From contig JBHIAI010000060.1 of NCBI GenBank assembly GCA_046861655.1, positions 1-10,543 of the forward strand: a DNA stretch of 10,543 nt, written 5' to 3'. Positions 1-10,543 of the stretch are shown in pieces. The first letter of the stretch is position 1; every line of letters begins with the position of its first letter. The position numbers were made by a program. The DNA comes from Fidelibacterota bacterium. GTDB taxonomy: Bacteria > Fidelibacterota > Marinisomatia > Marinisomatales > S15-B10.

Positions 1-3000
1 GGGACTGCACAGGATATAAGAAAAGGGCCGGTCAACACCGGCCCTTTTCTTATGCTTCGAGACCGTTACGTCTCTACGCGATTCGATCCTACTTCACGTA
101 GGTCATTCTCTTGGATACCATCCGGTTATTGAACTCCAGGCGGTAGATGTACATGCCTGAAGGCAAACCTGAGGCATCAAAGAGAACCCGGTAGTGTCCC
201 GGAGATTTCGGTTCGTTAACCAGTGTTGCGATTTCCCGTCCAGCCAGGTCATAGACCACCAGTTTCGCTATGCCCGCTTCCTTCAAATCATACGGAATCG
301 TCGTGGTGGGGTTGAAGGGATTGGGATAGTTCTGGCGCAGGGTGAATTCCACGGCAATGATGGGATTCCCCGGCTGATAGTCTATGCTGAGCCCCGGAAC
401 GATGGGTGGATCTCCCGGCTGAGCCGGATTTGAGTTGGTCCATTTCTTTACCACGCCGCCGTCAAAATCGGAGGTATAGGCAGTCATTCCATCCGCAGAG
501 AACGCTAACCCTCTCGGGGCGTAGTATGAACCTCCGGCAGGAGGCGTATCTCCCACCGAGGGCGGATCGGTTGTACTCGCGTTATGTCCGATCGTATCCA
601 CGGCGAAGAAATTCTGGGTGGGATCCAGGCCATACCAGCCGGTGAAGTCATTGGCGCCCACGTTCCAGTAGGTCCCTACCCACAACAGACCGTTGTTGTC
701 CCAGTCCATAGTCTGGGCCCACAGCTGTTTCTCCGTGGAGCCGTAGATCGTATCGACGAGAGCGTAAGGACCATCGGGACCGTTGTCACTGTGGTAGTGG
801 AGAATCCCGTTGTACGTGGTGTAGATGGCGCCCACGTACACATCATTTCCATCAGGACTCGCCAGTACAGAGCGCTGGATGGTGGGAACGGTGTCCGTAA
901 CGGTATTGTATACCTCAAAATCTGAATCGAGGATAACCAGGGAATGATTGTTGAGCACGTGGGTAATGTAGATGAACCCATTCGTGTCCGCCCCTGCCTC
1001 CGTGAGGGCTGCGGCCCCTCCTGATTCGAAGTCATACTTGTTCATTCCCTCGCCGGTCATGTAATTGATCCGGTACAGGAATCCGCTACAGGTCAGGATG
1101 TTCCCGTCGGCATCCAGAGAGATACCCCGGTTATTGTAGATCAGGGTATCGGTGACCCCGCCCACAGTCACAGTGCTGATTGGGGAAAAGTCCGCCTGGG
1201 TACCGTCGGAGTTGTAGACCATTATGGCCGAGGCCGTCACCGTATCGGGATCGAAGGACAACGTGTCGTTTTGATAGTACTGGGTTATCCAGATCTTACC
1301 CTCCGGATCCACCACGACGCCGTGACCCAAGGGCCCTACGTAGAAATCTTCCTCGTAGGTCCACACCTGGGCAACGGCAAGACCGGACAGGGCCACGATG
1401 ATGATCATTGCCTTTACCAATTTATTCATACATCACCCCCTTGTTTTGGGATTACGGTGGTTAGGAAAGAGTACTACTTTGTCTGTCTATTTCAAGTTAC
1501 TTATCTCGACACAATAGGTCAATACAATTCTTCCAGGGGCCGGTCACCGGATAATCAGAAATTTCCGGATGGCCGTGTCTCCCTCCCTGTAGAGCAGTTC
1601 ATTGGTGAACGGATCCCGGTAGTCTTCCGTTACCTCAAAATGGGCCAGGTACACCCCGCTGACCACCACCTGACGGGAGGACGTTACCGAGTTCCACGGT
1701 TCATCTCCGCTGCCGTCCGTGTGATGAATGGTCTTGATGAGATCTCCCCGTTCGGTGAAAATCCGGATGGTGCACCGGGCCGGGATGTTCAGGAACATGA
1801 TCTTATCTTTTTCGCCCGTATACTGAAGGTCCCTGGCCGCAATATGGTAGGGATTCGGTACCACCCGGATATCATCGAGAGATCTCCCTGCCTGTCTCCT
1901 CAGGAAAGCCGGTTCGGTAGTCCGGGTATAGAACCGGCTGCTGTGAAGCGGTCCGGTGGGGTTTGCTTCTCCGGTGGTGTTGTTGGACCCGTCGTTGTAG
2001 GCGACGATGTAGTAGTAGTAAGAGAACCCCCGTACGGCGCTGACGTCATCGAATTGAGTCCCACCCGGATCGATGGTGGCAATCTGTTCGTACGTGGTAT
2101 CCGGCCTGCCCACAGACCGGAAGATCATGTAGCCGGCGAAGTCGGATTCTCCTTCTGAAGGACTGGGACTCCAGCTGAGGGAGATTCTGTCCCCACCGGA
2201 GGTAACTTCAAACACAGAAGAGGGGAGGGGAGGCTGGGGAATGCCGTACTCCATGTCGAAATTCCTTTTGGCCCGGCCAAAGGTCTGAAGGATGGAGTCC
2301 TTCCCCGTGTACACCCAGGTATTCTTAAACACGTCTTTGTCGCTGGTTTCTGAACCGTCGGGAAGGGTGAAGGGACCGGAATCGCTGGGATCATCGTAGG
2401 CCCTTTTCCATCGTCTCCCGATCTGTTCGCACATTTCGCGGCTCAACCCACTGATCCCCTCCGCTTCCACGATAACGATACTGTCGCCGGGGGGGATGTC
2501 GAAGGGTCCGTAGGCGATCCAGACGTTGGTGCCACCCCCGTCATTGTGGATGGTGTAGGGATCGAGCCGGTGGGTAATCGATTCCAGATAGGTTTCATCC
2601 ATCCTGTCAGTTCCCCCTGATCCTTCGCTGGGATACGGGTTGCCACTGAGCATGTCGTACACCTTGATCATGTTGGTCATATCGGAGGGGGTGATATTGC
2701 CTACCGATGGATAGGAATCCCCGGCGTGCCACCCAAGAACGGCAGGCTGGTACGGATCGTCACTTCTGTCGGTGACACTCTTATCCACATGAAGAATCGC
2801 GGTTCCCGCGTGATGGGGTGAAGTAAGACGTCCGTCGTGTCTCACATCGGGGGCACCGATATTATCGAAGGACACTCTTTCCGACTGACCGAACCAGCTG
2901 AAGCCCGCCCGGATCCAATCCACGATGGGATTCTCTTCGGTGATAGACTCCCCGGCGTGAAGAGGGTAGTCCTCGCCCCGCTTCGTAACCCAGGAGTGTT

Positions 3001-9000: not shown

Positions 9001-10543
9001 GTTGAATCTCACGTCCACAAGGTTGGGGACTCTCGCCATACCGGCGGGATTGAAGAAAAGGGAAGTGGAGTATGCTTCCATGGTAGTCATGGCTTCGCCC
9101 ATACCGCCGGCCCTGGCATCGGAGGTAACGCTGAGAAACTGGAATCCCGTCTGAGCCAACTTCTTGTTCTGACCGGCCAGCTGGGATCCCCACGCATGAA
9201 AGATGAAGATCATGAAAAGCCGGGTACACATGAGTCTGTCCATCGGTTTACTCCAATTTGCAGGCTATTCTTCCTCTAAAATAACCACGTGAAAGGATCT
9301 TGTGGAGGCAACAAACCGGATCAGGTATCCTTCCCCCGCTGAAAGCTCGTAGCCCAATCGTGTCCTGATTTCAGGGGCGAAGGCAAAGGTCTCGAGGGGA
9401 AAAACGTCCTGACTCACTTCGATTTCCGTCCCGCCGTCATCCATCACGGCCATGGAAACGATGTCGTCATAGAAGAAAACCAGGGTTCCCTCTCCCATCG
9501 TCCCTTCCGCGAGATTCAGAGCCACGTACGCGGTATCTCCGGGCATCCCGATTCTCCAGTTCACCTGAAGGGAGTACATCAGGACTGAATCAGCGATTAG
9601 CGAATCCAGAGTATCTGAAACTGAGGCGCTTACGGGCACAGCCAGGGTATCTCCCAGGAGAATGGTTCTGGCCTCGCTATCCAGGGGTCCCAGGGAAAAC
9701 TCTTCTTCCTGGAAGGCGTCGGGAAGAATCTCCTGACACGAGACGAAGAGAAGTAGTCCCAGACCTGCAGCCACCGGGACGATTAGCCTTTCCACTTTGT
9801 TTTTCCTTATCTTCATGTTACACCAAGTCTGCCTCTCTGTGCGTACCGAGTTTTCGGGTCAGTTTCACCGGATAATGATGAATTTCCGGATGGCGGCGTC
9901 TCCCTTCCTGTAGAGCAATTCTCCGGTGAAAGGATCGATGTAGTCCTCCGTTACTTCGATATGAGCAATGTAGACACCGCTCACCACCACCTGTCTTGAG
10001 GATGTGACGGAATTCCAGGCCTCATCTCCGCTCCCGTCCGTATGATTCAAGGTCTTGATCAGGTCGCCCCTTTCCGTATAGATCCGGATGGTACAGAAGG
10101 GGGGGATGTTGTAGAACATGATCCTGTTCGGATCGCTTTCCCCGAATTGCAGTTCTCTGGCCTTTATGTTAAAGGGATTGGGGACGACGCGAATGTCTGC
10201 CAGTTTATCTCCGGCGGGTCGCTTGAGGGATGCAGGCTCGCTGGTCATGGTATAGAACTTGCTGCTCACCAGAGGGACCCCCGGGTTCACGTCGTTGGCA
10301 CTTCCGTCGTCGAAGGAAACGATGTAGTAATAATAGTCGAATCCCCGGATGGCATCCGTGTCGTCGTATTCATGAACGATGGTATTCGGGGTACCCTGTC
10401 CGCATTCGAAAACAAGTTGGTAGGTCGTGTCGGGCTGGTGAATGGCCCGGTAGATCCTGTAACCCACCGCGGGATTGACGGGATTCCTTTCCGCGTTGTC
10501 TGACCAGGTCAGCGTGATCCTGTCGCCTCCGGAATTCACCTGG

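Follow-up and report, generated by a model that had tools for sequence, protein, structure and literature searches.

Genetic linkage of a TonB-dependent transporter (TBDT) with a co-receptor at the surface and a barrel dedicated to export, as proposed for the cassettes described here, is known from TbpA/TbpB with Slam in Neisseria. There, a lipoprotein serves as co-receptor, export takes a route other than T9SS, and iron from host proteins is what is taken up. The SusC/SusD systems (RagA/RagB) of Bacteroidota PULs share with our locus an N-terminally extended TBDT of about 1000 residues directly followed by a dedicated surface partner; they too come in tandem pairs, with accessory lipoproteins and enzymes specific to a polymer close by (PMC13543919). 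Different from SusD however, the partner in our locus, here called the cargo, is beta-rich, lacks a lipid-anchor Cys and carries a T9SS tail, and a PorV-family barrel is encoded in the locus. In the attachment complex of P. gingivalis (PorQ-PorZ and PorV-PorU) a PorV/PorQ-family barrel holds a T9SS substrate by an uncleaved tail outside both the A and the B type, and this tail gives the best profile and fold match to that of the cargo; those pairs belong, as single components, to the core of the secretion machine, whereas here many TBDT-linked paralogous pairs are found. Type B CTD proteins and their cognate PorP/SprF shuttles are also co-encoded as cargo and barrel, and the cargo stays on the barrel (PMC9143113, PMC12618676), yet barrel family and tail are different ones and type B cargos are adhesins with no TBDT.

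The window analysed is the whole contig JBHIAI010000060.1 (C105; 10,543 nt) of assembly GCA_046861655.1 from a Fidelibacterota bacterium, and contains part of a locus whose conserved order is TBDT1, cargo A, lipoprotein, PorV paralog, IPT lipoprotein, TBDT2, cargo B and propeller. Its features are:

9865..10543, reverse strand: 3' third of cargo A (Fn3 and variant tail), cut by the contig end (ORF 9865-10542)
9265..9816, reverse: 183 aa, lipoprotein-like, with a lipobox Cys at the end of its signal; position kept in relatives, no Pfam match
8233..9243, reverse: PorV/PorQ-family (FadL-like) outer-membrane barrel, the locus paralog; over the NF033709 cut-off
6999..8198, reverse: IPT/TIG-domain lipoprotein of about 399 aa (PF01833, E 1e-11), kept in relatives; start placed at the Met before the lipobox, the ORF as listed beginning at 8345
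3854..7012, reverse: TBDT2 of 1052 aa, extended at the N-terminus by CarboxypepD_reg and containing a Plug (Pfam)
3710..3853, reverse: intergenic stretch with a dispersed, potentially hairpin-forming repeat
1544..3709, reverse: cargo B, 721 aa, with a four-part layout from ORF, structure model and tail match
about 3626-3709, reverse: signal peptide of cargo B, without Cys
about 2231-3625, reverse: beta-supersandwich and linker helices of cargo B
about 1900-2230, reverse: Fn3 domain of cargo B
about 1547-1885, reverse: PorZ/PorU-like tail of cargo B
89..1429, reverse: 446-aa protein with canonical type A CTD (TIGR04183 over cut-off) and weak propeller-family matches
16..53, no strand: perfect hairpin in the sequence, flanked on both sides by A/T tracts, likely a terminator ending the operon

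A genome-wide survey's note had described five tight operons of this kind in the genome, one of them here. The window ORFs and the other four cassettes are indeed present, with the order TBDT-cargo-PorV on C32 and C57, TBDT-cargo-283aa-PorV on C58 and cargo-typeA-572aa-TBDT-PorV on C61, where the cargo lies three genes upstream of the TBDT; tightness holds less well for the window, whose gaps of 144 nt and 114 nt compare with a median TBDT-cargo gap of 17 nt in relatives. A promoter/terminator scan remained at chance level, and an RNA look-up gave no holder among the matches listed. The cargo on C46 has no TBDT of its own. The same was said of g01328 on C120. However, g01328 and g01200 (window 9865-10542) align with the same relative, at its residues 4-472 (82% identity) and 493-717 (86%), respectively, and are most likely, as judged from sequence, the two halves of one contig-split gene, cargo A, directly behind TBDT1. 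TBDT1 in turn is split across C165 and C120. These two contigs share a 16-nt overlap, and on the basis of synteny and this single overlap C142, C105, C120 and C165 would form one locus. A corrinoid methyltransferase set lies directly upstream of TBDT1.

The cargos form one family, as proposed: profile-profile matches reach the body of the window cargo for those of C61 (562 columns), C58 (267 columns) and C32 (P 98%), while the C57 cargo matches by its tail alone and is grouped with C58 by BLAST. An independent tail HMM recovered the same seven ORFs as before (E<=3e-16), the next match being a PorZ homologue (E 4e-7), and the library counts of 3847 and 321 relatives were reproduced. The description of the unknown protein as one without known family also stands, as cargo B has no Pfam match at E<=0.1. 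TBDT2 scores far under the cut-off for SusC (TIGR04056, 50.7 bits against 368.25); as to the Oar type claimed for it, no barrel family of any kind was matched in Pfam at E<=0.1 and no barrel among solved chains, and its Atlas clusters are named only TonB-dependent receptor. True SusC/SusD pairs occur elsewhere in this genome, with PF07980 matches on other contigs.

As a whole, the locus is best explained as a SusCD-like uptake machine made from different parts, a reading to which we give somewhat less than even weight. The 78 related loci compared come from several FCB phyla, with record labels such as Fidelibacterota, Calditrichota, KSB1 and Ignavibacteria. Of their 107 full-length cargo genes away from the locus edges, five edge cases being excluded, 101 have a TBDT immediately upstream; in other subfamilies this is so for only 45/62 cargos. 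The 446-aa type A protein is a conserved companion too, one cluster of related proteins being present in 46/78 loci. A regular-expression lipobox count (11/111 cargos, 28/52 IPT proteins) was too crude for use.

The cargo has a Sec signal and a C-terminal Ig-like sorting domain and lacks an N-terminal Cys. In 29/150 listed homologues its body is combined with a canonical type A tail, the swap point being the Fn3 junction. The survey's idea that the tail is a T9SS sorting-domain variant holds in so far as the tail is of T9SS type, but it is nearer to the tails of PorZ and PorU than to type A. Neither the six complete cargos of the genome nor the window fragment match TIGR04183 or PF18962 (type A CTD), and type B is argued against by a CHU_C score of 14.2 bits against a cut-off of 27 (E 0.049) and by a partner barrel that is PorV-family and not PorP/SprF. 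Instead, the tails match the C-termini of NF052228 or NF033707 (NCBIfam; PorZ or PorU) with E-values of 5e-8 to 5e-3 and modest margins. The best fold match of the tail is the PorZ CTD 5m11 (Z 11.7, rmsd 2.0, 88 aligned), with a lead of about 1 Z unit over Fn3 rows, in a listing that holds no solved type A tails and so leaves room for type A likeness; Foldseek with the Fn3 and tail model gave only Fn3-type chains among the matches listed. Profile and modelled fold place the tail, by modest margins, in the PorZ/PorU class. PorZ and PorU tails are uncleaved and PorQ holds PorZ, as stated in PMC10947112.

The window barrel belongs to the PorV/PorQ family (NF033709, 175.7 bits, cut-off 90) and its alignment matches PorV 6h3i_F (E 2.8e-14); it stays under the cut-offs of the two equivalogs (NF033710, 75/250 bits; NF033711, 77/220 bits). 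The canonical PorV is encoded on C124 (195 bits on NF033710), and the genome has separate PorU and PorZ-like genes as well. A complex model of cargo tail and window paralog reached a score of 0.92, as opposed to 0.00 for the best of three controls, with at least 96% of contacts agreeing between runs and a partner pLDDT of at least 76. The mark for this score, met by 116/157 solved pairs and 2/215 mismatched ones, is approximate here, where our own alignments were used. The model supports a predicted binding of the tail to the paralog, with the reservation that the pass may reflect likeness only, because PorV-CTD complexes have already been solved. In both partners, conservation is higher in the columns of the predicted interface than in the remaining ones (PorV, 0.73 vs 0.60; tail, 0.78 vs 0.68). 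SprA and PorU are over cut-off in this genome, while GldM and GldN were not detected in it (93% complete), the controls being silent too.

We suggest that the cargo, with its Sec signal, T9SS-type tail and no lipid Cys, would leave the cell via SprA, whose gene is present; that its tail would be collected by the PorV/PorQ paralog of the locus rather than by the canonical PorV; and that, like PorZ on PorQ, it would escape cleavage by PorU and remain on its surface barrel. That it is a T9SS cargo is very likely, and its retention on the paralog is probable.

But would the paralog hold the cargo for good? It could instead act as a recycling shuttle or assembly factor that takes cargo from SprA and passes it to the TBDT as the lasting anchor. 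The survey had called the PorV 'private'; however, the window has one barrel for two cargos, this ratio recurs in 14/36 long loci, and in 6/36 no barrel lies within 10 kb. Sharing of a barrel gene by two or three cargos, which is frequent, fits a shuttle, as does a TBDT-cargo adjacency that in the window subfamily is tighter than that of cargo and barrel. Moreover, cognate shuttles direct type B cargos to other machines, and BamG, a FadL-family barrel, sits in an assembly complex (PMC12618676 and PMC12611786, respectively). Then again, BamG scores far under cut-off, cargo-barrel-cargo-barrel tandems with a single TBDT occur, and in 7/12 examined loci with two barrel genes DNA identity between the copies is 94-100% amid divergent neighbours, which fits a need for dosage. 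We regard a shuttle as rather unlikely. A rule of one barrel type for each cargo was not upheld: where barrels are paired, they group by genome in eight loci and by position in the Calditrichota and murA-lacking groups.

The cargo fold was reproduced by our model as supersandwich, Fn3 and tail. The sandwich resembles, linker helices included, the N-terminal domains of the GH15, GH65, GH94 and GH116 enzymes (Z 14-19; for GH116/GH15/GH94, Z 18.8, rmsd 3.6, 287 aligned) at 5-12% identity, but the catalytic (alpha/alpha)6 barrel of these enzymes is absent, Fn3 and tail standing in its place. The fold also occurs in catalytic mutarotases (Z 12-13) and in YidC (Z 11.8), which is no glycan protein. 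A sequence search of solved structures with the cargo returned only Fn3 matches and a weak match to the PorZ tail (E 0.14), and an Atlas search with the sandwich unnamed clusters only. The cargo does not qualify as a SusD-family helical TPR lipoprotein either, as it has no Pfam match, no N-terminal Cys and a beta-sandwich model. We propose that the non-catalytic supersandwich would catch or cap substrate beside the TBDT encoded upstream, as SusD does, because of the gene order and the missing catalytic barrel. This role as a non-catalytic TBDT partner is one we lean towards, and the place of SusD is indeed taken, as the survey held, by a T9SS-type cargo behind a TBDT, without lipid-anchor Cys and with its own tail and a locus-encoded PorV-family barrel. 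Its contrast with a lipoprotein system does not hold as phrased, however, as two lipoprotein genes lie inside the unit.

The cargo could also be an enzyme at the surface, from a new family of hydrolases, lyases or epimerases, that cuts polymer in the sandwich cleft beside the TBDT. Its fold is common to mutarotases and a GH174 chain (Z 13-14), and the same body is found in fusions with beta-helix, BNR and dockerin modules that have type A tails. Against this, in a 102-row alignment the invariant columns are mostly Gly and Pro, the only invariant acidic residue within the first 465 residues is D443 in the linker helices, two sandwich stretches are hypervariable (18-22% identity), and one scaffold accompanies unrelated polymers. 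We consider an enzyme unlikely.

What, then, would a non-catalytic partner deliver? Peptidoglycan or amino-sugar markers are present in 35/78 related loci (GHL10 in 28) as compared to 1/60 loci of other subfamilies, a difference to be read knowing that the loci are kin, that the control loci are shorter (744 kb vs 1223 kb) and that three of them hold an amidase_2 missed by the marker set. GHL10 breaks down peptidoglycan, according to PMC6016235. The neighbour genes suggest that the window copy harvests cell-wall fragments of other bacteria. Type A cargos encoded alongside (GHL10, amidase) would free peptidoglycan fragments, which NamZ and NagZ-type enzymes would trim, and we consider peptidoglycan or a related GlcNAc glycan a quite likely substrate. 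Other subfamilies, which would share the build and handle other polymers, accompany starch, beta-glucan, peptidase or nucleic-acid-type genes; starch genes occur in 8/8 loci of one of them, with labels assigned after viewing the neighbours. 'Polysaccharide' is too narrow as a general term, some subfamilies accompanying peptidases or OB-fold/lamin-tail proteins. That the window copy, with the architecture as proposed, imports chitin, other GlcNAc/GalNAc glycans or a methylated solute rather than peptidoglycan seems quite unlikely: GH18 and GH20 in some loci, melibiase and tagatose genes in a more distant one and the corrinoid methyltransferase genes would fit, but Amidase_3, NamZ, AnmK, a GH3/beta-lactamase fusion and GHL10 indicate MurNAc and stem peptides, and none of the sugars tested supports growth of Fidelibacter multiformis (PMC11652737).

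F. multiformis, a cultured, muropeptide-dependent peptidoglycan auxotroph, encodes a cargo-barrel pair under consecutive accessions (BFN36602.1 and BFN36603.1), which makes the idea testable. Four of five tested carrier genomes have no murA over cut-off; the same four have SprA, and no SusD match was found in them. A tie of the cassette to murA loss was rejected for the window's order, as murA is over cut-off in 25/31 genomes and partial in four more, this genome among them; with murA retained here and in the order, there is no tie between cassette and peptidoglycan auxotrophy. A murC check was uninformative in this respect.

It is very unlikely that the tail is a drifted type A signal leading via canonical PorV to PorU cleavage and LPS attachment or release, with the paralog doing something else, since, although PNP and SGVY motifs are common to both kinds of tail and PorU and canonical PorV are present, tail scores are bimodal, the variant has a short conserved junction where type A versions have a longer linker, and PorV immediately follows 53/63 variant-tail genes as opposed to 1/42 type A genes in the 60 loci from other subfamilies, edge cases excluded.

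In the favoured SusCD-like reading the importer would be a SusD-free build that differs from the Bacteroidetes systems, with a secreted partner that probably stays clamped to a dedicated barrel. A literature search, in which few subscription journals and no supplements were covered, listed no description of such a module, and the part of the Caldithrix genome paper available mentions only B12 and thiamine TBDTs (PMC5317091). PULs are recognised through SusC/SusD pairs according to PMC13543919, so that the cassette loci would be invisible to PUL finders. More tentatively, a three-part complex of TBDT, T9SS-exported lid and PorV-family anchor might be the standard, SusD-independent route of macromolecule uptake in FCB phyla outside Bacteroidota. 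Its subfamilies would serve peptidoglycan, starch, beta-glucan, peptides and nucleic acids, that of the window being the outer-membrane importer that supplies the cell-wall-auxotrophic Fidelibacter with the muropeptides it needs; taken jointly, these claims are doubtful. If the reading of the cassettes is right, the loci would provide a marker for diet prediction in Marinimicrobia, Calditrichota, KSB1 and Ignavibacteria, extend the T9SS sorting signals by a large class that has barrels of its own, and offer a candidate route for muropeptides across the outer membrane of a cultured peptidoglycan auxotroph. Many relatives have 4 to 14 matches per well-assembled genome.

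The observation made in the genome-wide survey's note, that a TonB-dependent transporter (TBDT), a secreted cargo protein and a paralog of the PorV/PorQ barrel family recur together as cassettes in this genome (2.06 Mb, 93% complete), is confirmed as a whole, the remaining four of the five cassettes (contigs C32, C57, C58 and C61) having been found beside that of the window, whose genes are:

Cargo A, 3' part only, cut; minus strand
Lipoprotein, 183 aa; minus strand
PorV/PorQ-family barrel; minus strand
IPT/TIG lipoprotein; minus strand
TBDT (TBDT2), 1052 aa; minus strand
Cargo B, 721 aa; minus strand
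446-aa protein (propeller) with canonical type A tail; minus strand

Because the TBDT fragments on contigs C165 and C120 show a 16-nt overlap, and the cargo fragments on C120 (g01328) and at the window end (g01200) align to residues 4-472 and 493-717, respectively, of the same relative, g01328 and g01200 would most likely form a single gene behind a TBDT, contrary to the earlier view that g01328 lies away from a transporter. The full locus would most likely read TBDT1, cargo A, lipoprotein, barrel, IPT lipoprotein, TBDT2, cargo B and propeller, an eight-gene order also present in genomes G003, G017, G020, G024 and G027. The reconstructed order therefore leaves a single barrel gene for two TBDT/cargo pairs, and the PorV said to be private to each cassette is not so at this locus. 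The C46 cargo (g00579) does lack an adjoining transporter, as had been noted, and is the sole lone cargo of the genome; its nearest match in G003 adjoins TBDT1. Between TBDT2 and cargo B (3710-3853) lies a dispersed, hairpin-capable repeat with matches on 13 other contigs, which may influence how stable the transcript is or how much TBDT2 is made relative to cargo B.

At least 562 relatives were confirmed among at least 613 pattern matches, and 78 loci were kept, with one genome per species. With 5 cases at locus edges excluded, 101 of the 107 full-length cargo genes in these loci have a TBDT directly upstream, at a median gap of 17 nt, and the 36 loci that span 18 kb or more show cargo to barrel counts of 2:1 (n=14), 2:2 (n=7), 1:1 (n=6), 2:0 (n=6) or other (n=3). 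A second set of 60 loci, taken by E-value round further matches and representing other cargo subfamilies, leaves out loci already fetched, close second hits on the same contig and judged type A tails. It holds 67 genes with the variant tail, a cargo C-terminus distinct from the canonical type A domain; with edge cases left out, PorV is next after 53 of 63 variant-tail genes, against just 1 of 42 with a type A tail, and 45 of 62 variant-tail genes have a TBDT directly upstream. Like those of the 78 loci, these counts are not independent because the genomes are kin. A complete TBDT-cargo-PorV locus also occurs in a record titled 'archaeon' (L119), probably a label or binning problem.

What is the variant tail? 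Among the 150 homologues listed, 115 have it, 29 have a type A tail and 6 have neither, the type A-tailed ones being frequently fused to beta-helix or BNR modules. Variant and type A tails are exchanged at the Fn3 junction, which places the variant in the slot of the sorting domain. The tails of this genome's cargos gave no match to the type A model; the variant matches the C-termini of the PorZ and PorU profile models, and in fold it comes closest to the PorZ tail (Z 11.7), with Fn3 rows about 1 Z unit lower. In P. gingivalis the tails of PorZ and PorU are uncleaved and PorQ holds PorZ, according to the consulted part of PMC10947112. The C32 cargo (L125:3541-6810), of a subfamily with its own barrel type, has a tail extending 8 residues past the usual end.

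The window barrel belongs to the PorV/PorQ family and is neither the PorV nor the PorQ equivalog; the canonical-like PorV of the genome is a C124 protein. A model of the window barrel with the cargo Fn3/tail region reached a score of 0.92, where the highest of 3 controls gave 0.00. It thereby passes a mark cleared by 116 of the 157 solved pairs and by 2 of the 215 mismatched ones, a mark that is rough here, own alignments having been used. Contacts agree by at least 96% between runs, with a partner pLDDT of at least 76; they fall almost all on the tail, including the insertion that the variant has behind its PNP motif, and their columns are conserved above the others. The modelling thus supports binding of the variant tail to the locus barrel, but since PorV-tail complexes have already been solved, the pass may possibly reflect mere likeness to these. 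Of the 12 loci with two barrel genes that were examined, 7 (L154, L181, L183, L087, L093, L098 and L185) hold copies whose DNA matches at 94-100% identity over 0.9-1.1 kb and little beyond the barrel gene, between divergent flanking cargos. Such copies would point to gene conversion or recent duplication, possibly to an assembly effect, and would fit a dosage need with a specificity common to both; other lineages have their two copies in position-specific clades.

The cargo body was described as a supersandwich followed by Fn3 and C-terminal domains, and our model (102 alignment rows, pLDDT 92, pTM 0.92) agrees: the supersandwich and its linker helices come first, then Fn3 and finally an Ig-like tail. 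Cargo B carries a signal peptide and lacks an early cysteine, and the body is common to the large paralogs of the genome at profile level. The sandwich best matches domains at the N-terminus of enzymes from families GH116, GH15 and GH94 (Z 18-19); the catalytic barrel of these enzymes is missing from the model. Because mutarotases and YidC have this fold too, it assigns no function. Since the invariant columns are mainly Gly and Pro and the sandwich contains two hypervariable stretches, we lean towards a binder, with an enzyme the lesser possibility. In P0002, P0005, P0007, P0106 and other homologues the body is joined to modules of the beta-helix, BNR or dockerin kind and to a type A tail, in what would be a free-standing secreted form.

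Peptidoglycan is the candidate substrate of the window's subfamily. Marker genes for peptidoglycan or amino sugars in the 78 loci comprise GHL10 (28), amidase_3 (10), NamZ (4), GH20 (3) and AnmK (2), with at least one in 35 loci and in 24 of the 36 long ones; the same markers occur in 1 of the 60 other-subfamily loci, and amidase_2, outside the marker set, in three. The GHL10 domain of Cwp19 degrades peptidoglycan, as stated in the part of PMC6016235 drawn on here. C165 carries serine-hydrolase, sodium symporter, LysA-like, GlmU-like, NagB, NamZ and NagX-like genes; C142, which synteny would position past the window's start, carries a GHL10 gene whose product ends in a type A tail, as well as a GH3/beta-lactamase fusion. 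Directly upstream of TBDT1, four genomes (C165, L123:2554-9988; L024, L027, L033) have a corrinoid methyltransferase set of URO-D-like, RACo, B12-binding and homocysteine methyltransferase genes with a sodium symporter. Under labels given after viewing the neighbours, starch genes accompany another cargo subfamily in all 8 loci of one cluster, and further subfamilies have GH16, M6/InhA-like or OB-fold/lamin-tail neighbours. The C61 cassette (L128:2023-13734) and L164, L190 and L193 differ in gene order, and the type A cargos found with them, of the OB-fold and lamin-tail kinds, may point to uptake of nucleic acids.

Fidelibacter multiformis requires exogenous muropeptides, and its class is missing peptidoglycan synthesis genes, in the portion of PMC11652737 consulted. 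Its proteins BFN36602.1 and BFN36603.1 are in the 90% clusters of the cargo and barrel of locus L070, making this cultured organism a testable host. The incomplete assemblies carrying L070, L065, L074 and L090 gave no murA above cut-off and no SusD match; SprA is present in them. The window's own order retains murA, and the role of the locus there would accordingly be one in feeding or in recycling.

The predicted way of working resembles that of SusCD loci, and the predicted anchoring of the cargo that of PorQ-PorZ and type B CTD/PorP pairs (excerpts of PMC9143113 and PMC12618676), yet the window locus is a member of none of these. A FadL-family barrel can instead act in assembly, as BamG does (PMC12611786, in excerpt). 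No published account of this module was found in a literature search of limited coverage that did not include supplements. The proposed uptake locus with a type IX (T9SS) cargo on its own barrel is supported in part: the sequence traits of cargo, tail and barrel stand and the private barrel does not. The full mechanism, SusD-free TBDT uptake with a T9SS cargo held on a PorV-family barrel, we put at a shade under an even chance.

SprA and PorU of this genome are both above cut-off, a PorZ homologue is carried as a separate gene, and two true SusD genes lie outside the window locus. GldM and GldN gave no match in searches whose controls were likewise silent; with SprA, PorU, the PorZ homologue and PorV present, the T9SS possibly lacks the known motor and ring. 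On C44 (L132:3097-6583), close to a gene that matches the C-terminus of SprA, a 535-aa protein with PorU-like tail is encoded, followed by two more PorV-like genes, a further barrel-cargo unit without TBDT.
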